A DNA stretch of 59,621 bases, filler included, from Basidioascus undulatus (lineage: Eukaryota): NCBI GenBank assembly GCA_000826855.1. It is 7 parts of 7 records of this genome, joined end to end, with 100 filler letters (N's around TTAATTAATTAA, not from the genome) between each part and the next. Parts side by side here need not be neighbours in the genome. Positions count along the whole stretch, not along the records: positions 48,618 to 54,069 come from JTLS01001931.1; 6 more parts are not named here. One strand, given 5' to 3'. Shown piece by piece: positions 593-52,460 of this stretch. A program made the translations under genes and the position numbers. Within the stretch, counting starts at the first letter, position 1, and each line of letters opens with the position of its first letter. The notes beneath the pieces are model-generated. The model did not search any database, was not told where the DNA came from, and worked only from the letters and a program-made list of their open reading frames with translations.

Positions 593-2249
593 ATGGCCTT
601 GGGACTGGGAATGATCAAACTGGTTCCAGGCATCCCGCCCAACGCTTCGTTCCACCCGGCTTTTCTCCTCACTTCCCCCACCGCACAGCTCATCCTCGCC
701 GACCCGTCGTCCCCTATCGCGCTCCCACTCCACCCATACTTCCATGGCACAATCTCCATCTCTGCCCGCGTCGTGACCATCCACCCGCGCTCGCCTGACC
801 CGCCTATCTCGCCCTCGTCCCCGCACCACCGCCTCAAAGACGCCCTCGGCAAGTTCAAGGGCAAGCTCCGCGGAAAGTCCTTCTCCGCCTCGTCCTCCGT
901 CCTGGCAGTGCCCTCGAGCCCCAACAGCGGCAGCAGCGGCCAGCTTCCGCTGCCCTCGAGCAGCTCCGCCGCGTCCTCGTCCGCCACGCCGAGCGAGGCG
1001 GGTAGCCCCGTGGGGTGGACGCCCGAGCCCGCGTTCAGCTTCCGCGTCCCGACCGAGAGGGACGCTCACGCATGGGCGGATCTTCTCGTGAAGGAGCTGA
1101 ACGCCCGCGTCGTCGGCGAAGATGCGCCTGGATATGGAGAGGGCAGGGTGCCGGGCCGGTCGCCGACATTTGTGGGCCGCAGGGCGTCCGCGGGCGGCGC
1201 CCTGGGCGTGGAGAGGGAGCTCGAAGCTCTGTGAGTTGTGTAGCCATAGGCCGTGCTGTTTTTCTCGCTGATCCAGAGATGGAATCTGCAGTGAGCAGCC
1301 GGTGCCTACCTCCGGACTCGGCCTCGTCCTGCCCGCGCACTCGCACCGCAGCGCTTCATTCTCCCCCTCCTCCTCCTCCTCTAACCCCACCTACGCCTCG
1401 GCCTCCTCTTCCTCTATGCCCCGCCCTGTAATCCCCCAGAACCGCTTCTTTCCACCTCCACCGCCGAAGCTCAAGTCCCCGGCCTCATCGCCCGGCATCG
1501 CCTCGCACTACCTCGGCACCTCCCCTCCCGACCCGCTCGAGCTGGACGCGGACCGGCGCCCGTCCTTCTCCAGCCTCAGCTCGAGCCTCAGTTCGAGCGA
1601 GGTTCACACGACCAGCACGCCCGTGAGCCCGGAGCAGTATGTCAAGGATCTGCCGGTCCCACCAGTCTCGTTTCGCGACTTTCTCGTCGGGGGCGAGGGC
1701 GAGAGTACGGGACGGCCCGACAGCAAATTGCCTACGTCTCCGGCACCTCAGCCTCATCTTCACTCCTCCCCACGCACCTCTCTCTCGGGCCCAGCGTCGC
1801 CAGGCAGCAGCAACACGAGCACGAGCGTAACTCGGCACATCGTCCCGCCCTCCGAGCTCATCCGTCTCGCCTCCTCCTCTCCTATACACGCGCACTTCCA
1901 CTCGCACTCGCCCATGACGCCCTCCCCCACGCTCACGACAGCGCCACTTCCCCCGCCGCCAGCGCCGCTGCCGCGCCCGCCGCTCATGCTCCTGCGCTCC
2001 AAGTCCGCCGCCGAGACGCCCCGTGCGAAGAAGGAGCTCAGCGCGTGGCTCACCCAGCCGACGGCGAAGGCTGCTGCTGCTGGGGGAGGGGTGAGTCACC
2101 GCCCGTCGCAGCATGAGCCTATCCAAGAGCTCCCGGGCGAGACCGTTGGGAGAGTCGGGCGCTCCAAGTCCGTCTCGTCGCCGGTCACTGCGACGGCGTC
2201 GGAGGCTCAGGCGGAGGCGCACATTCAATTCCACCCGAAGCCGCAGTAG
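593..2249 (+). CDS. Hypothetical Ser/Pro-rich protein (2 exons)
   Basis: The ORF from ATG 593 joins ORF 1302-2249 in frame through a GTGAG...CTGAT...CAG intron at 1231-1291. Strong GC3 codon bias. Confidence 0.65.
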
Positions 2250-3017
2250 CACCACCACGCGCGCATCGCTTCGTTCGTCCCTCCCTCGCCGCCGCCATCG
2301 CCCAGTGCGGCAGAGAGCGGCGAAAGCCACGGCGCCTGAGGCACGGCCGCGGCCGCGTACCGAGTATCGCGCTGTCTCTTACATTCAACCGACGCTGGTC
2401 GTCAATCGAACTGTCTTGCACGTTCACTAATACAATACACCGTCGCCCCCTCATCGCCCATCCTCGCACCTTAATGCACTCGCACTCGCACTCGCACCCG
2501 CACCTGTACTCGCACTTCCGCTAGCACTTCTACTCGCACAATACAATCCTAACACTTATTCGCACTCGTTTGTTCGACCTCAGCGCATCCGTGTCGTATT
2601 CTTCGCATCACCTCATAGCAGAGCCGCACGTCGCATTTTCCGTGTCCCCTAATTCTTCTTCAACGTCCTGGTTCTCCGTCCCACTGCATAGTCTTGTACA
2701 TGTTTCCGCACACCAATCTCCACACGCCCGGCATATACATGGTCGTCTTCGATTCTTGGTCTTTTCGCAACTCTCGCCGTCTCGCCTCCCTCCCCCATTT
2801 GCTGTGCAACACGCATCGCTTATTGTGTAGATCACGTTTATAGATATGACTTTAACTGGGTTGCCCCCATGCGACACTTTGAAGGTACTTTGGACGGCAG
2901 GTCGCTCTTCCTGGGAGATTACAGTGCTCGGCAAGCGGCGACTCGCTCTGAATAATCCGATTCCATGCATTCAAGGGAGATGATAATCCGCGCCCCAGTA
3001 TTTCCGTTTCAGCTTTT

Positions 3018-4110
3018 CTATGCGTTTGGAACAAGGGCGTCAACGAGATCTGCGAATGAGTACAACACGGCGTCCGCCTGCGCGTGATCGTCATCGCCTT
3101 GCCTGAACTTGCCCGTCTTCACTGTCACACCGACAGCATGCGTTAGCGTTTAATCCTCACAATGAGATCCGCCATCCGATTTTCAACATCCAGCACTCAC
3201 CAAGCACCCTCTTAAGCCCGAGCTCCTGCGCTCCCCCACCCAAGTCTGCGCGCCAATCGTCTCCAACAACAGCGACGCTCTCCCAGTCCTCCCTGCGCAC
3301 GCCCTCCGCTTCGAGCGCTTTCAGAACAATCTCGAAAAAGGCGAGACTGGGCTTCCCAACTGCCTCGGCCTGCACGCCGGCGGCCTGCTCGAGCGCATGC
3401 ACGAATGGTCCAGGGCCGAGACTCAATTCGCCGTCCGTGTCCGCGAAGTACAGCGCCTTGTGCGTCGCAATAAGGGGGATGTCACGTTTGTTGTGCAGGA
3501 GACGGAATGCGGCGTTGAGGGAGGAGTAGGTCAAGTGCTCGGGTGCGAGGCCGAGGAGGACTGCGTTGTGCGGAGGGTCGTGGGGGAGGGTGGAGAAGTC
3601 TTCGAGTGCGGAGGGAGAGAGGAGGAGGAGGGGACTGTGAGCGGAAGGAGGTGAGTGAAACGATCCCGAAGTCGCTGTAAAGTTTTACGGCGGGCTTACC
3701 GAAGATTCCGCTCCTCAACGACCTCTCGACATGCGGACAAGCTCGTGAACAGTTCGTGCTCATGCACTTCAAACCCAATCATTCGAAGTCGCTCAATGAG
3801 GGAGCCCTTGCTCTCCTTGCTTGTATTGGAGCTGAATTTCTCCACAAAGACTTCTGAGCTTCACTGGAGACGGTCGTAATTGAAGTGTACGCGTACCAGA
3901 AGCGGAAAGGAATGCGGGCTGCGCGAAGACGAGCGAGGGACTCGACGGCGCGGGGCGTCGCGTTCGACCCAATATGGAGGGTACCGGACAAATCGAGAAG
4001 CAGCGCTTTGATCTTTGGTCTGGGTTAGAAGTGAGTGAGTGCGTGAATTAGTCGGCACGCGACGGTCGGAAGACGGACAGCTGCATGTTCGAGGACGAAG
4101 GAGAGGCCAT
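3018..4110 (-). CDS. HAD-superfamily subfamily IIA hydrolase (HDHD2/LHPP-like)
   Basis: Spliced motifs KALLLDLSGTLHIG, GPGPFVHALEQAAG...VGKPS, VGDDWRADLGGGA and VKTGKFRQGD. Stop at 3018-3020; first-exon boundary uncertain. Confidence 0.9.
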
Positions 4111-7271: not shown

Positions 7272-7904
7272 TTATCTTGGGCTCTCCTCATTCCCAAAAT
7301 CAACAACACTCCCCATGGACCTCCAAGCCCCGCCCTCGCCCCTACTGCTGCCCCATCGCCCGCGGAACCGCCCCATTGCCCGCTTGGGCTTGCTGGACGA
7401 CAACGGCCAACGCGGACGTAAGAGCGGCACAATCTGTATTACCAGGTCGAGAAGATCATCCAGGAACACTGCAATCTGGACGAGCATCACGGCGGCCCTG
7501 CTGATCTGCAAGTACTCCCACGCCTCCTGGAGATCTGTTCCATGCGAGTCTGAGTCTACCTGCGCTCTCCCAGGGATTCAGGGTCGAAGCCGGTTTTTGA
7601 AAGTATCCCAGACATCCCAGAGGGCGACGAGGGACGCAAGCCTCGAGCGCAAGCGCCGCGACAAAGGGCGCGACCTCGGCGAGGGTGGTCGGTTCAAGGC
7701 CTTGACGGCGAAGGTCGTTGCTAGTGATCCAAAGAGATAGAGGGTGATCACGGTGGTAGGCACGATGAGGGGGTGTATGAGGTGCAGCGCAGGCCTAACG
7801 ATGCGGGCTCCGTTGCCGAGGCGGGGCCGGCGTCTGTAGGCGTCCGCGCCGGTGTACAGCAGGACGCCAGCGGCGAGGAGGATGTAAGGGGGGAGCAGAC
7901 CCAT
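7272..7904 (-). pseudogene. Unrecognised small membrane-protein gene/pseudogene, copy A
   Basis: MGLLPPYILLAAGVLLYTGADAYRRRPRLG...RLASLVA, then QEAWEYLQISRAAVMLVQIAVFLDDLLD. Paralogous to 8908-9549. Confidence 0.5.
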
Positions 7905-8907
7905 CGAGGTGTTGCCAGGGACCAATATGGGGCGAGGAGGAAAGTGAGGATGCAGACAGGGAAAGCCGGAAGCACGCTGGCAGGCACGGTGCTTAGGGGC
8001 TGAAAGCGAAGGAGGGCCAGTCGCGTTTCCGACTGAGGATGACGCTGAGTGCATGCCCCCTTCCTCTCAGAGTCTCTTCCGATTCCCTTTTTCTAAGGGG
8101 AAGACTTCCCGTTGACTCAGTACAAGCACGACTCGTTGCGGGTGAGGTGCAGTAGTGGGTGGGTGTGAACAGCTTACGAGAAACGAGAGCGAGTCCAACG
8201 ACGGGCAAGTACACAGCAGGGGACCTAGGCAGGGCCACCAGAAACGCATAGTATAGCAGGAGGAGCAGAAAGAGAAGATACAAGCGTTCCGAACCCTCTT
8301 GGGAGAATACATGCATCCAGCGGCATGTACGTTCGCCTACCTCCTTTGGGTGAATGGTGATCTTCACAAAGAAGGGCCGACACGGCGCAAATCAATCTTT
8401 CTTTCTCAGATTCCTCCAATCCTCTAGAGCCACGCTATATTTCAGAGCTCTCTAAGAACTTGCACACTCGCTCAGGTCGAATGGCCTAGGGTTTTGTTGG
8501 GTTTGGGATCTGATTAAGCTGGGAGGAAAAAGGACTTGACATGCCCGCAACCTGCACTACAGACCAGCGACGACAGACGAGTCGCAGAAGCGAGTTCAGC
8601 TCCATGACAGACAGGAAAGTACGGAACACGAAACCAACGGGACAGGACAGGAGGCAGAATAGAAATGCACCGCCAGCACCGTTCAGGCTCTTTCAATATC
8701 TCTTACACTTATCCGCATCTGTAACCTAAGGACACTCTAGGAATACTTCTCTGTATTGTTCGATTGCGCCAGACTTAGCGAGTTGCAGCATGACCAGGCC
8801 CACGACTTGACGCGCTGCGGCAGGGAAGAAACACTTGCACGACACCACGCGAAAGTACTTGTATCCGTGTAGACGTAAGTTAAGATGTTCCCTAGTTTTG
8901 ATGCCGA

Positions 8908-9549
8908 TCAATAACTCAAGTCCCACAACACCCCTCCGGCGACCTCCAAGCCCCCGCGCCCGCCCCTACTGCTCTCCCACCGCCTGCTGAACCGCGCCCG
9001 CCCCAGCCGGGGCCTGCGGAGGTGTGGGAACGGAGCACGACGACCCATGAGCCTCCCCAGTCTTCCTCTTAATCCAAAAGGTTTGCCAGAAAGATCGAAA
9101 CCTCGACGAGCTGTGCAGCCGTGCTGCCAAGCTGCAAGCCCTCCCACAAGTCCTCCATGTCTCTTTCATACAGCCCCCAAGTCTGTCTGAGCTCGCCAAA
9201 AGGAGCAGGGTTGAAAAGACGTCTACGCACGGCTGAGAGTATTCCAATCCTTCCGGAACGCGACTATGGACGCGAGCTTTGCGCGCAAGTGCGGGCCGAG
9301 CAGAGGCGCGAGCCCGACGAGGCCAGCGGGCTCGTCAATGCCGCAGGTGTGGAGGTCGCCGATAATGCAAACGTAGGTGTAGAAAGTGAAGCCGCTGATA
9401 TAGAGGACGTAGCGGTGCGCGAGGGGCAGGGGGACCCAGGCCGCGCGGGCGCGGTGAGGGCCGAGACGTAGGCGTCGCCTGTAGGCGTGTGTGCCGGTGA
9501 GGAGCAGGATGCCGATGGCCAGGAGAGTCAGAGAGAGCAGCGGTTCCAT
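8908..9549 (-). pseudogene. Unrecognised small membrane-protein gene/pseudogene, copy B
   Basis: MEPLLSLTLLAIGILLLTGTHAYRRRLRLG...KLASIVA, a GTGCGT intron near 9230, then EDLWEGLQLGSTAAQLVEVSIFLANLLD*. Confidence 0.5.
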
Positions 9550-14270: not shown

Positions 14271-16590
14271 GTGGACGTTATCGCGGAAGCAAGTAAGCAT
14301 CAGAAGCCATATCATCCAGGAATAAGCTATGCTCGGACGTACATTGGTCGAACCTCGTCGCCATTGTGCGGCCGACTACAAGACAGCGCACCGACATCGA
14401 GCCTCAAGAAACGAAGTTCGGCCTCCTCCTCCCGAAGTGCAGCATCCGGGTCATCCCCGAGGCTCTTCAGGAGGTCTCGGAAAAAGCTCTCGAATGTTTC
14501 ATGTGTCATTGACGTTGTCTGGGTACAGTCTGCAGTCAGACTGGTGCGAGGAGGCAGGACAAGAAGCAGGACGAAACGCACTGCGTACTCCGCGACTTGC
14601 CGCGCCAGTTCCTTCAAGCGCTCGTTGAGAGACTCAGATAGCGGTCCCAAGCAGGTCTCGAGGTCTTTTTCCTGGTCCGAGGTGTCGATGCCTGCACCGC
14701 TGCTTTCGCTTTCAGCACGGCGAAGTCGACGTCTGTAGCCCGGTCGTGCGCGATCGAGTAGAACTGGTCCTTCTCCTCCCGTATCTGAAGAGAGGCGAGT
14801 GCCTTCAGAGGGCCTGCCGAGCTAACGGAGTGGAGATGAGGTTCCCTAGTAGCTTGAGGCAAAAGGCCACGTTGTCGTGCAGCATGTCGATCTCGGACGT
14901 CGTCTTGTAGAAAATGAGAACTTGGCCAACGACGCTCTTCCCTTTCACCGCAGTGCCTTCAAAGCGCCGAAGGGCGCAGCGCATTTTTCTGGGAACGGGG
15001 TGGTACAGCAATGATGAACGCAAGTAACTGTAGGCATCAAGGCAATTCCTTACGCATCCAGACATTCGACGGCCTCCAACACGTTTCCAGCCCTGCGCAA
15101 ACTCTCGCCGTGTTCAGACCTCAGCGTGTCTTCGAACAGGTCAAATATGTGCTGATCAAGCCCAATATTCAGCGGGGTATCCCAATGGAGATTTAGCTCA
15201 GCTCGTAGAGAAGTCATCGAAAAAATTCTCGAATGCGTGTTTGAGGTAGTCGTTCCGGAGCTTGTTCGCCAGGCGCCGAGCGTGTGACAGCCAGCGTTGT
15301 GTGAAGCGTTGGGGCTGTGAAACGTGCGCGACGATCATGAAGGAAGGGCCGGACATCCTGTGTAGGTGATTGTGGGGTCGAGTTGTCGACAAGCCAAAGC
15401 GTCCCAAGAGCGCAGTTGTGGACTGAACATAATCCGCATCGGTTCACGGAGAAAGACATGCGGGAGCAATATAGGTTCGATCAATCCAAAAGTGGACTTG
15501 TAGACACCAGTTGCACCTGCCCGTGCACCGAGGAAAAGGCAATATCCTGCTGTACAGGAGTCGGAGCCGGTACCACATCGATTGTCTCTCGGCCCAGCTG
15601 CTCTGAATCGCCACGCTCCATTCAGGCTTCCAGCCGCGCAGCTCCCATCCGCGCTTCGCAAGCCAGTCCGAGGGGTCCTGTCAGTAGTCCGGGTAAACTG
15701 TTCTGTCAACGCAATCCCACTGCGATTAATTGACAATACCGACCTTGATCCCTCTTGGGAGGACATTCCGAGGCTCCTTTTTCGGCTGTTCAACACACAG
15801 TCACTTAGGATACGTTCCTCACGCTTCTCGGGCCAGCTGAAGAAATGGTTACGAACCCCATGTGTCAGTTGCCTGTCATCGGCTATGCTGAATAGGCGGA
15901 GCAATTCCTCCTGGCACCGGCGCGCAAGTGTGCTTTGAAGAAGGTCCCAGCTACCTGCGTTGCCTTCGCCGAACGACACTGGAAGGGCTCCGGGGGCAAC
16001 GAGCTCATCCCTCTGATAGATGAAGCGTCGGTGCTCTGGCGAGTCGACGGCAACGCCGAGCCTTGCGGTTGCGCGGCGTACGCAAGTCTGCCGCCTTGAC
16101 TCCTGAGAACGCCTGTCAGTGAACCGATGGAACAAACATAACGGGGACATCGCCTCTCTTTCAGAGCGCTGGATTCGGCCCTGCAAGTTCTCCGGTTTAT
16201 GTTTTCTGAGGCTTCAGGCGATGTTCCTCGGTGAGCAATGTGACAAGCAACGCCAGCGAGCGAGTCACCGTCAGCGGACTTGCGTTGCTCCTGCCGGTAG
16301 GGCAAGACTTAGGGGATGGGCTTCAAAGGAGTGCCACCGCAAAAACTTGTGTATACGTTTATGAAAGCGATGGAATAATCACCGTCGCTGCTGGAGTTCT
16401 CAGAGCGCGGCATGCATTGGAAGAGCTTCAGACCGCACTCGGGGACGTGTTCACGAAGCCTGCAGGATGAAGTCAAAAGGTAGGGCGTATTGCGGCACGA
16501 CAGTTTCATGGTTGCACAATCCTATATAGTACACAGAGCTGTAGATTTTCGCTATTTACGAAAGTCATAATGCAACCCGGCACATGTCGC

Positions 16591-23104: not shown

Positions 23105-25598
23105 ATGAGCACCTCGAAGCCCCGCCAGCAGACCAACTCGCACACGATGAAGACCACTCATCGTGGGCGGCCGTTCCTCAAGGTGAGTTTGCGTGGTTTC
23201 GATTGTGGCTCGGGGGGCGCCTGGTGAAGGGAGAGAGGAACAGGGGTCCGTGCGAGCCGGAAGACCGGAAGACGGAGGCCGCCTGCGCATCATTTCGCTG
23301 ACATTCCTCTGTCTCTCATAGGACACTCACGACCTCTACGCGACCCTCATCGTTTCCTTGAACCTCGGCGTGCACCGACAATTCTTCAAGTCGTACCCCA
23401 ACTCGTTCACGACCGGTGCGTAGCCGACCTCAACCCGTAGCCCAGCGCGCTCTGCTCACAGCTCTGCCCCCGCCCCGCCCACAGATGAAGCCGCCTCCAA
23501 CCTGTCGCAGCTCAAGTTCGCGCAGTCGAACCGAACACCCGATCCTCGCGACCCGACCCGCATCATCACGACGACGACCACGACCACGTTCTCGATGAAC
23601 CGCGAGATGGCCAAGGGCGTGTGCCAGATCTTCATGGACGCGCGGCTGATTGAGAACGCTGCGGACCCGTCCTCGGGTGTGTTCAAGGACCGGGGCGTCT
23701 ACATGCTCACGCCCAAGGGCCTCCATGTCCTCGAGCGCTTCATCACCAAGAACGGCATCTCCGCGGACCACCTCATGAAGGTCTTTGCGACGCAGCCGAT
23801 CTGCATGAAGCTCCTCCACCTCGAGCGCCGCGCATCGGACGACGAGATCCTCATCACCCGCCCCGTCATCGAGGTCATCTTCCGCCGCTTCGTCGGCCGC
23901 CAAGCCAACTACCTCCACCAATCCTCGACCGCCTCCTCCTCCGCTTCCACCTCCTCCGCCACCGGTCCTTCCGCAGGCCGCAACTCAGGCACGAACCTCG
24001 ACTTCGACCGCACCCTCGGCGTCGAGATGAACGAGCTCCCCGCGGCGTCCGTCGTGCCGCCCAAGGGCGTCGCGGCCCCCGCGCCGGGAACGTCCGTCAA
24101 GCACACATTCGCCGCCATCGCCGCGCTCGACTGGCTCACCGATTTCACGACCATCATCGGCCGCGACGAGGCCGCGGAGGTCGCCGCGCACTTTGTCCGC
24201 TACGGCCTCATCGAGCTCCTCATGGACCGCAGCAGGAAGGAGGACAGCAGCATGATAGTTACGGTCAAGGCTTCGGGCGCATCGGGTGGTGCGGCGGTAC
24301 GTTTTCTCTTCGTTTCTCTGATCAAACGTCGCTGGGATTGAATGCTGATCGTGTCGTGGTTTACTCGAGTAGGAGGCCGAATTCCGGTGTACGTCCAAGG
24401 CTGTCTACCGCGTTACGGACGAGGGTCGTCGCGTCGCGCGCTGGGACCGGGCACCCGCTGCCACGGCGTCCACGTCCGCCTCCGCCTCCGCATCCGCGTC
24501 TGCACGTCCCGTCACCGGCTCCTCCGAGGCGCGCGCCTCCTCTGACTCGCTCGGCGAGCGCTCCTACGGCCCGGGCGGGAAGTCGAGCAGCGGTTCGGAC
24601 CCGAAGCTGTCGCGGCGGACGTCGATGGCCGAGCGCCTGCGCGCAGAGTACCTCACCTCCTCCGGCGACGTCACGACCGGCGCTGCCGCGAACGCCGCAG
24701 CGCACCACAAGGAGTCCAACACCGGCCGGCTGAAGCAGATCCTCGACGAGCCTGCGCTGCGCAGCCTGTTCCGCGAGTTCCTCCGCGGCAACTTCTGCGA
24801 GGAGAACTTGAGCTTCTGGCTGGACGTTCAGGACTTCAAGCGCCGGTTCGGGACGACGAGCTCTGCGGTTGCGAGCGGCTCCGGGGGCACGAGCGGCGCG
24901 AGGAGCGGCAAGACGTATGGCGCTACGGCGATGGAGAAGCACCAGCAGGAGCTGATTGCGATGGCGTTCGTCATGTGAGTGGGCTTATCCCCTCTTTTCC
25001 TGCCTCCGTCACTATTCATGTTCGACCCTGCTGAGCTGACGTTTTGCTTGTCGCCCACAGCTACAACACGTACCTTGCGCCTGCGTCTCCCTGCGAGCTC
25101 AACATCGACCACAACCTGCGCGCGGAGCTCGTCGACTACATGTCCAAGATCCGCGAGGAGGCCAAGGAGAAGCACGGCCCGGACATTACGGCGCAGACGG
25201 TCGACGGCGTCGTGCCCCTGCACGCGTCCCAGCTCCAGACGATGGTCAAGCTCTACGAACGCATCCAGGCGTATATCTTCCGACTCATGGCGACGGACTC
25301 GGTGCCGAAGGTGCATTCGCTTCATTCTAAGCCCGCTCGATTTCAACCTCTTCCGTGTCAGTCGACTGACGCTTTTTGGCCGGGTCTGCAGTTCATCAAA
25401 ACTGAGCGCTTCCTTGCGCTCATGAAGTCGGTCGACGAGTACGCAGACGCTGTCGCAGCGGAGCGCGACGCCGAGGCAGCGGCCGCGGCGGGGGGAGTAT
25501 CACCCGTGCCGAGCACGCCTGTCGTACCCTCCGGAGGGGACAAGGCGCACCTGAACGTCTCGCTCGCTGCGTCTGCGAAGCAGTCCGGGTCGAGCTAG
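23105..25598 (+). CDS. Regulator of G-protein signalling with DEP and RGS domains (FlbA/Sst2/Crg1 type)
   Basis: MKTTHRGRPFLK|DTHDL, DPTRIITTTTTTTFSM, LTPKGLHVLERF, and RGS core LFREFLRGNFCEENLSFW...YLAPASPCELNIDH...LMATDSVPK|F. Five coding introns. Confidence 0.95.
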
Positions 25599-32966: not shown

Positions 32967-33363
32967 GCATGGTGTCATCATGGCTGCAGTGGAAGGGCTT
33001 CACCACATCAACTATTACATTCCATATTTTGTTGAAGTTGAGTAACCCGTTGACTGCAGCGTTGGGCGGTGTAAATGTCAAACGTCAGTTGTTAGACAGC
33101 CGAGCAAGCGGCCGTCGGGAATTCAAGAAAGCCGATAGCTGAAAAGTTGGCGCGGAACATCCGCCTCTAAGTCGAGCGTCTTCTCTTCACCCCCTCCTCA
33201 CCGCCGGCACCCTCTTCCTCGCCGTTTCCGCCAATCTCGACGCACTCTCCGTAGACGGCAGTTCTCTCTTCGCCGCCGCCACCGTCAACCCACCCTACCC
33301 AGGCAGCGTTCGACCTACCCTTACCCTTCCTGCTTCCCCCCTTCGATATCGACCACCCTTTCC

Positions 33364-35843
33364 ATGCTGTATGGCGCAGATTCTTACCGAGAACGACGGA
33401 ATCTGTGCTAAATCTTATGCTTCCAGCTGCCTTTACGAGACCAGCGCTGGTCTGGCGATCTTGTAGGTCGACCCACACTGTCGGCTGGAGGGCATGCGCT
33501 AAGCAGGGAGGGCGGGCTTTCACAGCAAGGTTGCCGACGGCAAGCTCGAGGACCCAGACTTGCACAAGCACTTTGACTCTGCGGAGAGCGCTACCAACCT
33601 GTGCGTTGTTCCGAGGCTGGGAAACGGAGATGGGCGCTGACGGGCGGCATCGCCTGGGACAGCGTCAAGCTCAAGGCGATCCACCGCTTCAGCTCGACGG
33701 CCGACGCCGTCGAGGACATCACTGCTCTGCAGGACGGGAAGCTGAGCAAGGCCGTCAAGAAGTTCCTGGTGGACGAGGTGCAGGGCGGGGAGAAGAAGTC
33801 GAAAAGGGCCGAGACGCTCGCCGTCATCGACCCCAAGCTCGGTGCGTAGTCCTGAAGAAGACGCGCTACCACCGAGGGGATCTGGCTGACGAGGACGGGG
33901 AACAGGCTCCACCATCTCCCAGAAGCTCGGCATCAAGGTCATCAGCGACTCGACCACGATGGATCTCTACCGCGGCATTCGCTCCCAGCTGTCTGCTCTC
34001 CTCAACGGCGTGGACCAGAAGGACCTCGACACCATGTCTCTCGGTCTTTCCCACTCGCTCTCCCGGTACAAGATCCGCTTCTCGCCTGACAAGGTGCGCT
34101 CATCGTTCTGCGTCCGACCGATGGTGGGAAGTCGCTGATTTCGTATTTGCGCTGCGCAGGTCGACGTCATGGTCGTTCAGGCTATCGCGCTCCTCGACGA
34201 CCTCGACAAGGAGCTCAACATCTACGCCATGCGTGTCAAGGTTCGTTGGAGGTTTGAGCGGGAAGGGCGGCAGTCGATGCTGATAGGTCTGTTTTGTGGC
34301 AACAGGAGTGGTACGGCTGGCACTTCCCCGAGATGGGCAAGATCATCACGGACAACATCGCGTACGCGAAGGTGGTCAAGGCAATGGGCTTCCGTACCAA
34401 CTGCACCTCTACCGACCTCTCCACGATCCTTCCTGAGGACCTCGAGGCCGCCCTCGGCGTCGCGTCCAACCTCTCGATGGGCACGGAGATCTCTGAGACC
34501 GACCTCGCGCACATCCACTCGCTCTGCGACCAGGTCATTTCCATCTCCGCCTACCGCGCCGAGCTCTACGAGTACCTCCGCAACCGCATGAACGCCATCG
34601 CGCCCAACCTGACCGCTCTCGTTGGCGAGCTCGTCGGCGCCCGCCTCATCTCCCACGCGGGCAGCCTCGTCACCCTCGCCAAGTACCCTGCCTCGACCGT
34701 CCAGATTCTCGGCGCCGAGAAGGCGCTTTTCCGCGCGCTCAAGACCAAGCACGATACGCCCAAGTACGGTCTCATCTACCACGTGCGTCTTGTTTTGCCT
34801 CCTCCCGTCTTGTTGCCAGAACCGACATCGTCTCCGTTTTGTGTTCCAGGCCTCCCTCGTCGGCCAGGCCCCTCAAAAGCTCAAGGGCAAGATGGCGCGC
34901 ATGCTGGCGACCAAGACCTCCCTCTCCACCCGCCTCGACGCGCTCGCCGACGCCGAGACGAAGTCGGACATGTCTGCGCCCACGATCGGGCTCGAGCAGC
35001 GCGCGAAGCTTGAGTCTCGTCTGCGCGCGCTCGAGCGCCAGGCGGGCATCGAGCGCGTCCGGACGGAGGCGCCCGCGGGGGCGAAGAAGCAGGGCAAATT
35101 CGCGTACGAGGGCGCGGGCAAGATGTACAACAACGGCGCGGACGACGTCGCCACGCTTATTGCGACGCAGCCGCTGGCGGGCAACGGCGTGAAGGACGAC
35201 GACGAGATGGAGCAGGACAGCGATGAAGAGGCGGGCACCGCGGTGGAGAAGGCTGCGGAGGAGATCAAGGCGGACAAGAAGAAGGCGAAGAAGGTGCGTC
35301 TATTACCGCGGCGCTATGATTATGGAGATGAGGTCGTTAAAGCGATTTCGCGGCTCTGTAGGAGGCGAAGAAAGCGGCGGTATGTCTGCATTTCATGCTG
35401 TTCGGTGCGGCACTGTGATGGCTGACTTGGTCTTTCCGATGATCCGCAGAAGGAGGCGGTCAACGGCGAGGGATTGACGGACAAGGAGCGGAGGAAAGCT
35501 GAGAAGGCGGCGGCCAAGGCGGCGGCTAAGGTGCGATCCCTGCCATCTCAACCATAGCACGACCCCTTCCTAACACCGACTGGCAACGTTTCCCACAGGC
35601 TGCCGAGATTGCTCCCGTCGGCCCCGAATCCTCTCCCGTCAAGGAGTCGAAGAAGGATAAGAAGAAGCGTTCGCGGGATGAGGATGGCGAGGAGGTACGT
35701 GCTCTCACCTGCTGGCTTTCCGCTCGGGAGAGTTTTTGAGACTTGTCGTTATTACGAATCTTTAGGAGTCCGCTGAGGCCAAGCGTGCGCGCAAGGAGGC
35801 AAAGCGGGCGGAGAAGAAGGCACGCAAGAGCGAGACTGCATGA
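33364..35843 (+). CDS. NOP58: Nucleolar protein 58 (box C/D snoRNP core)
   Basis: [85 protein letters not shown], and a KKE/D-rich tail. Confidence 0.97.
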
Positions 35844-47971: not shown

Positions 47972-48441
47972 TATCGCAACGTTGACGCTTATGCCTTTGA
48001 TGCCCTTGATTATATTTGTACTTTCCGATCTGAATTTGATGATTTGACGCACTCATGCTCACTATTTGCCCTCGCTTGCGTTCGGCATCGCCTGCAAGGT
48101 TGCGTCGCCGAGCAATTTAGGAAAGTCCCTTGTTTCGGTCACCATGTCAGTTTTTCGGATGCGGGTTTCTTTCCAGAAGATCAAATTACCGGGCGTGATC
48201 CGTTCAAGTTCGGTTTGAAAGGCCGGAAGATTGGTTATCTGCCTTCATAGTGACGTTGGGCACCAGATTCCTGGGGCGGGGAGATCGAGCGCCTGAATAC
48301 ATGAATCTGGTCAGAACGCTTTCCTGTATCTGTATTTTGACTGGAAATACACTGGCGTAAAGCCGGCAAAAAGGCATGATGAGCGCAAGCCCTCGTAACT
48401 CGTACCGCAATCTAATCTAGCACGATCAAGTTGCAAAAGGA

Positions 48442-48513
48442 AGGTCGGACTGGGAATCGAACCCAGATCCTTGGAATCAGAATCCAATGTACTAACCGTT
48501 ATACTATCCAACC
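48442..48513 (-). tRNA. tRNA-Gln(CTG)
   Basis: GGTTGGATAGTATAACGGTTAGTACATTGGATTCTGATTCCAAGGATCTGGGTTCGATTCCCAGTCCGACCT folds as a 72-nt cloverleaf with a downstream T-run. Confidence 0.95.
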
Positions 48514-48517
48514 TGTT

Positions 48518-48617
48518 NNNNNNNNNNNNNNNNNNNNNNNNNNNNNNNNNNNNNNNNNNNNTTAATTAATTAANNNNNNNNNNNNNNNNNNNNNNNNNNN
48601 NNNNNNNNNNNNNNNNN
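48518..48617. other. Artificial contig linker
   Basis: N44-TTAATTAATTAA-N44. Confidence 0.98.
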
Positions 48618-49221
48618 ATGCCTTGTCAGAAGCTTTCCGCGTTGCAGGTTTGCGAGTAGGTGACAGTCTCATTACCTCGTCCCTCTTCCCCTTCTTCTTG
48701 TCGTCCTTCTTGTCGTCCTTCTTGTCGTCCTTCCTGTCGTCCTTCCTGTTGTCCTTCTTCTTTTCGTCATCCTTCTTGTCGTCATCCTTCTTCTGTAGGT
48801 GACCAGTGATGCCTTGTCAGAAGCTTTCCGCGTTGCAGGTTTGCGAGTAGGTGACAGTCTCATTACCTCGTCCCTCTTCCCCTTCTTCTTGTCATCCTTC
48901 TTGTCGTCCTTCTTGTAATCCTTTTTCTTTCCGTCCTTCTTGTCGTCCTTCCTCTTGTCGTCCCCCTTCTTTTTGTCATCATCCTTCTTGTAGTCGTCCT
49001 TCTGCTTTCAGACCGCAATCAGCGTTGCTTTACCTAGACCTGCCGAATTCTAAACCGGAACGAACTTTCTTGTCGTCCCCGTTCCACTGGCGCCTGCCCA
49101 GCTCGCCGGCATCGCGGCGGCTCATCATGGCGTAGCCGGACACACCGCCGACGGCAGGCGCAGCGGCAGCCATGGCGGTAGCGGAGAGGGCGACGACGGC
49201 GAGGAGGGAGGTGGTGCGCAT
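48618..49221 (-). CDS. Secreted Lys/Asp-rich repeat precursor (KEP-like), 3'-truncated
   Basis: Signal peptide MRTTSLLAVVALSATAMA and a pro-region ending LGRR|QWNGDDKK. Exon 2 is KDDYKKDDD...KKKGKRDE and exon 3 is KKDDD...KKKGKRDE, separated by identical phase-0 introns. Confidence 0.85.
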
Positions 49222-51229: not shown

Positions 51230-51450
51230 ATGCAGAGAAGGTCGTCCACTGCTTAGTCAAAGTCGTCCGGTAAGGGTCGCGGTCCCTCCCAGGCATTCAG
51301 GTCAGCCGCCAGTCGCGCATTGAACGTTTCCTTGTCGACTTTGAGCCAGTTCCTCCTGAGGGCTGTCTGAAGCTGCGGAACTTCGAGAGCCAGCTCAGTC
51401 TCTATGGGGAGGTGGTCAGAACCATGGTCATGCCTAATCGTTCCGACAAG
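51230..51450 (-). mobile_element. LINE ORF2 relic (end of APE endonuclease)
   Basis: HDHGSDHLPIETEL...RRNWLKVDKETF, the SDH motif and the following NW-K motif of LINE endonucleases. A stop codon follows. Confidence 0.75.
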
Positions 51451-51764
51451 TACGCGTGGACCAAGATGGCGGGCGGGCGCCCTGCATCGATGCTACATCG
51501 CCGCGCGCCCTGGCGCCAGGCGCCCGCCAGCGAGAGCTAGCTCAAGGTGCTCGCGAAGCGGCTGAAGCGCGAGGTGGAGGACTTGATGAAGGAGGGGTTG
51601 ACCAAGGGCGAGGCGGCCACTGCGCTCATGAGGCTCGTGAACGGCGGGAAGGCGCGTATGGAGTAGGATTCGAAGGTCGCGAGGCGCGATGCGGAGAAGA
51701 TGGAGAAGATGAGGAGGAAGCAGGATAGAGGGAGAGTCAGGGTTGCCAGGTTGGATAGCGACTG

Positions 51765-52460
51765 ATGGTCGTCCGCGCCCGCATGGAACAGGCCATTCGA
51801 TCGAAGTCCATCCTTAATTCAGATGGAAGCCATCCTAACATTCGCGCGGTCATCCTTCCCCGCTCTCGTGACATCCAGGTCATACTCCACACGGAGGACG
51901 ACGTCTTCACTCTCAAGTCGACTGGGTCGCGGCCAAACTCGCCATCCAATACCATGGCCACGTTGTTGACGTCGTCCGGGTCGACTCCCGCTTCGACATC
52001 GAGAACGGAATTAACACCCTCGTCGAGTCCCCCCAAGCCAAACTGGCCTGGCCCTGGAACCCCAACGAGGGCCCGGACCCAAAGCCCACCGCACCCTTCT
52101 CCTCTCGCTCCGCTCCTCGAGACCGCTAATCATGCCATCACCAACGGCGTCTCGATGCATGTTTTCCCCACATCGCCCGCGCGCAATGCGCCCATTCACA
52201 CAATGCTGGAAATGGTCACGCCCGGGACACACCGCAGCTCGCTGCAAGGCCAAGTCGAAGGCCTGTCCGCGCTGCGCCGGGCCCCACGAGCTTCCTGCAC
52301 TGCCCTGAATTCGCTTACAAGTGTTCGAACAGCACGAAGTGCGCGCACATCAAGAGAAGTGCGCACTCCGCGGCGACGCCCACTGCGCCACCTCCCGCGA
52401 CTGCCCGAAGAGGAAGGAATTGCTGGAGCGCCACAAGCAGAGGAGGCACGCGGAGGAGGG
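51765..52460 (+). mobile_element. LINE ORF1/gag-like relic
   Basis: IRAVILPRSRDIQV and, frameshifted, KCALRGDAHCATSRDCPKR, a degenerate C-terminal zinc knuckle typical of fungal LINE ORF1. Confidence 0.55.

Follow-up and report, generated by a model that had tools for sequence, protein, structure and literature searches.

Predicted secreted Lys/Asp-rich proteins encoded by exon–intron modules in Basidioascus undulatus

Fungal Kex2-processed repeat proteins (KEPs), as defined in one survey, yield at least four fragments on KR/RR cleavage, at least three of them similar, with more than 15% of the length as a further threshold (PMC6339444). The gene family described in this study shares with the KEPs of three papers (PMC6339444, PMC7329392, PMC9769878) a signal peptide along with a pro-region, dibasic sites, repeats, Kex2 and a Gln after one site. 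Unlike those KEPs, it has no conserved core peptide, its repeats are themselves full of dibasic pairs, its internal KR sites are limited to some subfamilies, and its units are exon+intron modules. Because cleavage sites fail to delimit the repeats, we do not file the family as a KEP, although it resembles a Kex2-matured precursor. A search of the supplements to two KEP surveys for three K/D motifs found none of them, in files that may contain the sequences only in part.

Spidroin MaSp2 and flagelliform genes share with the family low-complexity repeat exons and near-identical small introns, together with unequal crossover and slippage as the presumed mode of change (PMC9779670). In contrast to spidroins, the family is fungal, short (~150–340 aa in our models), charged and spread over many contigs, and it contains one identical intron pair only, other within-gene introns being 68–76% alike. 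The micro-exon genes of Schistosoma likewise form a secreted multigene family confined to one lineage, and their many short in-frame exons find a parallel in the models of C268 and C887, whose exons are mostly 9–69 nt (bioRxiv 2023.06.21.545858); their introns span 0.2–5 kb, unlike the 52–89 nt of the fungal models, and we see a likeness of design without claiming homology. In our literature search, accounts of exon+intron module architecture concerned the silk genes of spiders and the genes of schistosomes and none concerned fungi, nor did the search find a description of such a secreted Lys/Asp family in fungi.

With regard to composition, hydrophilins are defined by a hydrophilicity index above 1 and Gly above 6%. 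The family shares extreme hydrophilicity (GRAVY about −3.5; −3.48 for the mature window product), absence of Cys and presumed disorder with hydrophilins, LEA proteins and tardigrade disordered proteins, but it is predicted to be secreted with a pro-region, and Gly in its K/D tails stays below that cut-off (4.8% in the window tail and 1.9–3.1% in four others, with 7.4% reached only if the leader is counted). Single alpha-helix (ER/K) proteins are Glu-rich and place opposite charges at i+4, unlike the window tail with an E/(D+E) of 0.09 and 18 opposite-charge against 49 same-charge pairs at i+4. Among synthetic materials, mixed-charge polymers of Lys with Asp or Glu are known for binding water and resisting fouling.

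The window gene and its predicted product

The window, i.e. the whole stretch of 59,621 nt of joined contigs that was analysed, contains the gene on its minus strand, corresponding to positions 1–604 of contig G000:C1036 (other contigs of this genome are given by number). With its ATG at 49221, the gene runs 5′ to 3′ through exon 1, intron 1, exon 2, intron A, exon 3 and a cut second copy of intron A (Table 1). Exon 1 encodes MRTTSLLAVVALSATAMAAA...MSRR↓DA...LGRR↓QWNGDDKK; its predicted signal peptide has a top 11-mer hydropathy of 2.32 from aa 6, with hydropathy as the only basis. A further, fifth dibasic site, DDKR↓K at residue 69, lies within exon 2. Re-reading of the sequence confirmed the predicted signal peptide, the pro-region with RR sites and the two Lys/Asp exons with KKKGKRDE ends that the sequence-only reading had described. 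A tRNA-Gln(CTG) at window positions 48439–48514 lies at the end of the preceding contig and has no link to the window gene.

Table 1. Positions of the window gene's features and of the adjoining linker
Feature	Position	Strand	Basis or remark
Putative TATA-like element CATAAAA	49350..49356	(-)	Sequence; same element 5′ of young paralogs; function presumed
Exon 1, 52 aa: predicted signal peptide (~aa 1–20), pro-region, beginning of mature part	49066..49221	(-)	Sequence and hydropathy
Dibasic site 1, MSRR↓DA, one Ste13-type XA dipeptide after cut	49114..49119	(-)	Counterpart in 7/10 modelled genes
Dibasic site 2, LGRR↓QW	49090..49095	(-)	Sequence
Intron 1, 64 nt, phase 0, GTTCGT..CAG	49002..49065	(-)	Sequence; absent from the earlier reading
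Exon 2, 45 aa, Lys/Asp repeats, end KKKGKRDE, KR at 48878–48873	48867..49001	(-)	Sequence
Intron A, 74 nt, in phase 0, with a branch-like CTGAC at 48820	48793..48866	(-)	Sequence
Exon 3, 39 aa, hybrid, end KKKGKRDE, KR at 48687–48682	48676..48792	(-)	Sequence
Second intron A copy, cut by contig end	48618..48675	(-)	58/58 nt identical
N-run and linker between two contigs	48518..48617	(.)	Gene 3′ end outside window

An (M/L/F)-x-(K/R)-R leader site occurs in nine of ten modelled genes, and an N-terminal hydrophobic 11-mer of 2.0–2.35 in all ten, again judged by hydropathy only. Residues of the M/L/F type at P4 suit Kex2, and a Kex2 gene with S8 and P-proprotein domains is present on C2292. The proposed secreted pre-pro architecture with Kex2-type leader sites was upheld. 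An N-terminal Gln can cyclise to pyroglutamate; the residue after the second leader site is Q in 2/6 genes that have this site and H or Y in the others, hence pyroglutamate is not a family trait. For Gly-amidation, suggested by GKR, the search returned no PHM domain match and no control match either.

The window tail is 92% charged (K+R 0.51, D+E 0.40), and K/D tails in general are 86–95% charged with a net charge of +0.01 to +0.13 per residue. Opposite charges are better mixed than in shuffles in 5/5 K/D genes (kappa 0.014–0.039 vs ~0.10). Cys is absent from all ten models, and neither a second hydrophobic stretch nor, in complete models, a hydrophobic C-terminal anchor was found. Judged by composition, the tails would be disordered. 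Six N-glycosylation sequons were counted in C412 and five in C2248, and such sequons (NRS, NQS, NES) stand at several exon ends of both genes.

Paralogs and module duplication

A search at the DNA level within the same genome gave 27 matches, and the exon 1 protein gave 14 leader matches, 11 of them at E<=0.001. Two further queries added the leader-bearing loci C391 and C2281; leader-bearing loci number at least 16, which is a lower bound. C2339 was rejected as a family member, being a chance match. Ten genes were modelled with phase 0 imposed, and 1/54 introns could slide to another phase; 51/54 introns start with GT and 3/54 with GC. The models do not include the broken copies C753, C428, C2477, C75 and C391, nor C2281 and C2542, although all of these were read, and exons 11–18 of C887 (a run-on without K/D) as well as the intron read-through after window exon 3 were dropped.

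The window gene together with C753, C2656 and C428 forms a young subfamily, and gene plus flank of four copies near the window gene are 84–87% alike in DNA. C2656 is an intact gene of 4 exons coding for 150 aa, C753 is broken by a stop and frameshifts, and C428 is degenerate. Orphan last exons begin at the contig ends of C837 and C360, and a second orphan 5′ flank ends at the contig end of C192; the continuation of the window gene probably lies on C837 or C360. A lone intron-A end with one K/D exon lies at G000:C1498:445-602, inserted in sequence 93% identical to C837:816-1251. Also, the young copies are part of a duplicated segment of ~3 kb, 84% identical between G000:C753:1870-4851 and C2656:5-2941, which contains a tRNA-Ala(AGC) gene downstream. 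The flank that the window gene shares with its paralogs ends at ~49960, and the paralogs' next 310–330 nt are found inverted at ~51441–51771, which means that the window copy carries an upstream inversion with inserted sequence.

Distant members carry the same leader with different tails: C2 is pure K/D/E, C412 and C2248 combine K/D with Gly/Asn blocks, and C2258, C566 and C2317 have Tyr/Lys/Pro, EKPV and GN blocks including KPKKVYYKK. The most striking members are the micro-exon arrays of G000:C268 (~7700–9127) and C887 (~2150–3336), in which 13 and 10 (kept) small K/D exons of mostly 9–69 nt alternate with related introns of ~60 nt and the intron 1 donor is GC; in the window gene the Lys/Asp exons measure 117–135 nt, phase 0 being imposed throughout. 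A broken paralog at G000:C2477 (~14700–15874) has its micro-exon array partly inverted inside the gene, and a further K/D/E/P micro-exon array of EDKPKEEKK type was found at G000:C2542 (~3200–4100). Leaders are 54–94% identical in protein among the 8 closest rows, whereas for most intron pairs the likeness does not exceed that of shuffles, which argues for constraint on the leader.

Above the shuffle threshold of 0.674 we found 28/1431 intron pairs, 10 of them within genes (C887, C268, and C2656 introns 2/3 at 0.69). Exon+intron duplication is thus a real feature common to the family, with introns of one gene related to each other, and older copies of the same module lie in complete contigs (C2656 introns 2/3, C268, C887).

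The two window copies of intron A are identical over 58/58 nt up to the contig end, as the earlier reading of an identically recurring 74-nt intron in a ~191-bp unit from 48675 onwards had stated; including the exon end, the identical run extends to 85 nt (48618–48702 = 48809–48893) at a spacing of 191 nt. The long identical array envisaged there was not found, the assembly containing two intron A copies and complete sister genes having 4 exons. Intron A is 95–96% identical to its counterparts in C753 and C2656 and 68–69% to intron type B. At 4–8% divergence, the range of the sister paralogs' introns, a perfect 85-nt run has a probability of 0.03–0.0008, so the run would either postdate these gene duplications, or be converted, or stem from the assembly. 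Over the first 21 nt, exon 3 has one difference to sister exons 3; over the last 51 nt, it has two to exon 2 of the same gene. Identical introns beside diverged exons had been proposed; this stands for the introns, and the exons are better described by a hybrid exon 3 with a sister-exon-3-like start and an own-exon-2-like end. Such a hybrid is the pattern expected of unequal crossover inside a K/D micro-repeat, which an assembler crossing near-identical copies could mimic. The putative newest event, at window intron A, is represented in the present assembly only. Growth by module duplication is therefore backed at two ages, recent (the 85-nt run and hybrid exon 3) and old (within-gene intron pairs).

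Transcript evidence, outside relatives and host placement

A search of public runs listed no RNA run. Contigs of three public runs (X1, X2, X3) were compared with the window. One X3 contig skips 49000–49066 (joint 48999–49067) and agrees with C2656 at 11/11 listed places; in this spliced sister contig the intron 1 acceptor lies 3 nt further on than in the window model, 67 nt being skipped. The loose end of a second X3 contig is equal to the junction predicted at intron 1 of C2. In the run index X3 stands as 'DNA?'; we took it as RNA because the table shows no such joints in X1 and X2, and their source may also be a processed DNA copy. We infer spliced transcripts of C2656 and C2, and the predicted splicing is thereby borne out for these paralogs but not for the window copy, which none of the X3 contigs (0/5 records) matched at 99% or more. 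No public-run contig is listed on 48618–48677 or bridging exon 3 to the second intron, and X3 covers neither the bin of intron A nor the flank upstream; such gaps prove nothing. At 49098, 49142, 49144 and 49153 all listed X1/X2 depth carries a letter other than that of the window copy, so these runs do not vouch for it. X1/X2 contig depth drops in rough steps, which hints at copies beyond those assembled, depth not being equal to copy number.

A leader profile of 52 positions found no homolog in protein libraries at 141–2000 aa or 26–140 aa, Pfam gave no match for exons 1–3, and Atlas gave no usable match for the C2258 leader. Since short leaders are hard to detect, missing homologs mean rarity in these libraries only. 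The sole match of the full HMMER scan, a repeat protein without signal peptide, was rejected on inspection.

For host placement we used an Sst2/FlbA-type RGS gene with DEP domain at window positions 23424–25500; a Nop-domain (Nop58-like) gene lies at 33255–35425, for which Atlas matches gave no information on the taxon. The best RGS matches are 60–64% to Ustilaginomycotina, and no named Pucciniomycotina occur in the best 120 of 490 matches. In an RGS tree of 37 rows, midpoint-rooted and without Pucciniomycotina rows, the host stands beside Wallemia (support 91/85, unstarred). Microbotryomycetes, the taxon suggested earlier, find no support in this one gene (RGS), which groups the host near Wallemia. 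The wider Wallemia group is xerotolerant. Wallemia ichthyophaga is halophilic (PMC3849046). This Wallemia-side placement is the only ecological support for a water-holding role.

Competing readings and biological meaning

We give an even chance to the reading that the family encodes Kex2-matured, disordered, zwitterionic extracellular proteins which retain water on the surface of cells or spores. The signal peptide predicted from hydropathy would take the chain into the ER, and Kex2, cutting at the conserved (M/L/F)-x-(K/R)-R sites, would remove the pro-region. The released product would be a disordered, Cys-free chain in which Lys blocks and Asp/Glu blocks are finely mixed and net charge is low, perhaps cut further at exon-end KR sites in the young subfamily. 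Most likely it would act physically, as a water- and ion-holding layer on wall, spore or matrix under drying, salt and heat, in which case composition and length would matter and exact sequence would not. Gene length would change by unequal crossover in Lys/Asp micro-repeats, copying exon end, intron and exon start in phase 0, and the identical window intron would be the newest such event. Several paralogs are broken, which we count against this reading.

A tentative and rather improbable alternative is a KEP-like polyprotein, in which Kex2 would cut at exon-end KR and Kex1 trim to the Gly of KKKG, releasing one zwitterionic peptide of 20–45 aa per exon, with module number as dose. KR-x-E (KRDE/KRAE) stands at 7/7 internal exon ends of the four young copies (C1036, C753, C2656, C428), across intron types 31% diverged, compared with KK at 23/45 and DE at 3/45 internal exon ends across models; together with C2656, where 3/3 Arg lie in such sites (3 vs 1.2 expected, p 0.05), this favours the peptide reading in the young subfamily. 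Within the Lys run, KR is often preceded by a small neutral residue (G, T, V) that would stop Kex1, and the RR↓DA of the leader is similar to the KRDA/KREA found in alpha-factor precursors (PMC6339444). Digested at KR/RR, the window model falls into 6 fragments, of which 3 (25, 26 and 39 aa) are K/D-rich and alike by composition only, the gene being incomplete. Against this, the fragments have no conserved sequence or length, 21–39 KK/RK pairs per K/D tail blur any defined core, and tail dibasic-Arg sites pooled over five K/D genes number 8 vs 5.6 expected (p 0.14, with Lys/Arg labels shuffled and copies non-independent). The window copy has 2 vs 2.1 expected, C412 and C2248 fall below expectation, and the tail of C2, though spliced, contains no Arg and no such site. 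The proposal of one peptide per exon thus stays plausible within the young subfamily and does not extend to the family.

The tails of C412, C2248, C2258, C566 and C2317 (KPKKVYYKK, EKPV repeats, GN-rich stretches) recall plant extensin/proline-rich and glycine-rich wall proteins. We consider it very unlikely, however, that the products are structural wall or spore-coat proteins cross-linked via Lys or Tyr, with K/D-only copies as reduced derivatives of longer Tyr/Lys/Pro, VEKPV and Gly/Asn members: the window tail contains 2 Tyr but lacks Pro, Ser and Thr, and the lack of Cys and of a C-terminal anchor speaks against it too. The least probable reading takes the second intron copy for a chimera of near-identical copies made in assembly and/or the window copy for a decaying segmental duplicate without product. 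The contig does end within the repeat, the orphan 5′ flanks (C1036, C192) and last exons (C837, C360) show that the assembler failed here, and C753 and C428 are broken; but exon 3 has its own sequence, an open frame and correct junctions, exons 1–3 contain no stop or frameshift, and the older duplications lie in complete contigs. Unlikely as a whole, yet worth stating, is a fungal counterpart of the micro-exon and spidroin designs: poly(Lys/Asp) zwitterions from duplicable, skippable phase-0 modules, giving Gly-capped Kex2/Kex1 peptides whose number and length would be set by how many modules there are, and which would shield a Wallemia-related fungus from drought, salt or heat.

The family is real, lineage-specific and partly expressed, expression being read from X3 contigs of paralogs with X3 taken as RNA; its best reading is a lineage-specific family under birth-and-death. 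If its products are merely fast-turning low-complexity secreted chains, their interest is modest. The genes display exon+intron module duplication at several ages within one genome. If it does secrete mixed-charge polymers, this fungal family would be a natural counterpart of the synthetic ones and a candidate, open to testing, for a role in surviving low water activity.
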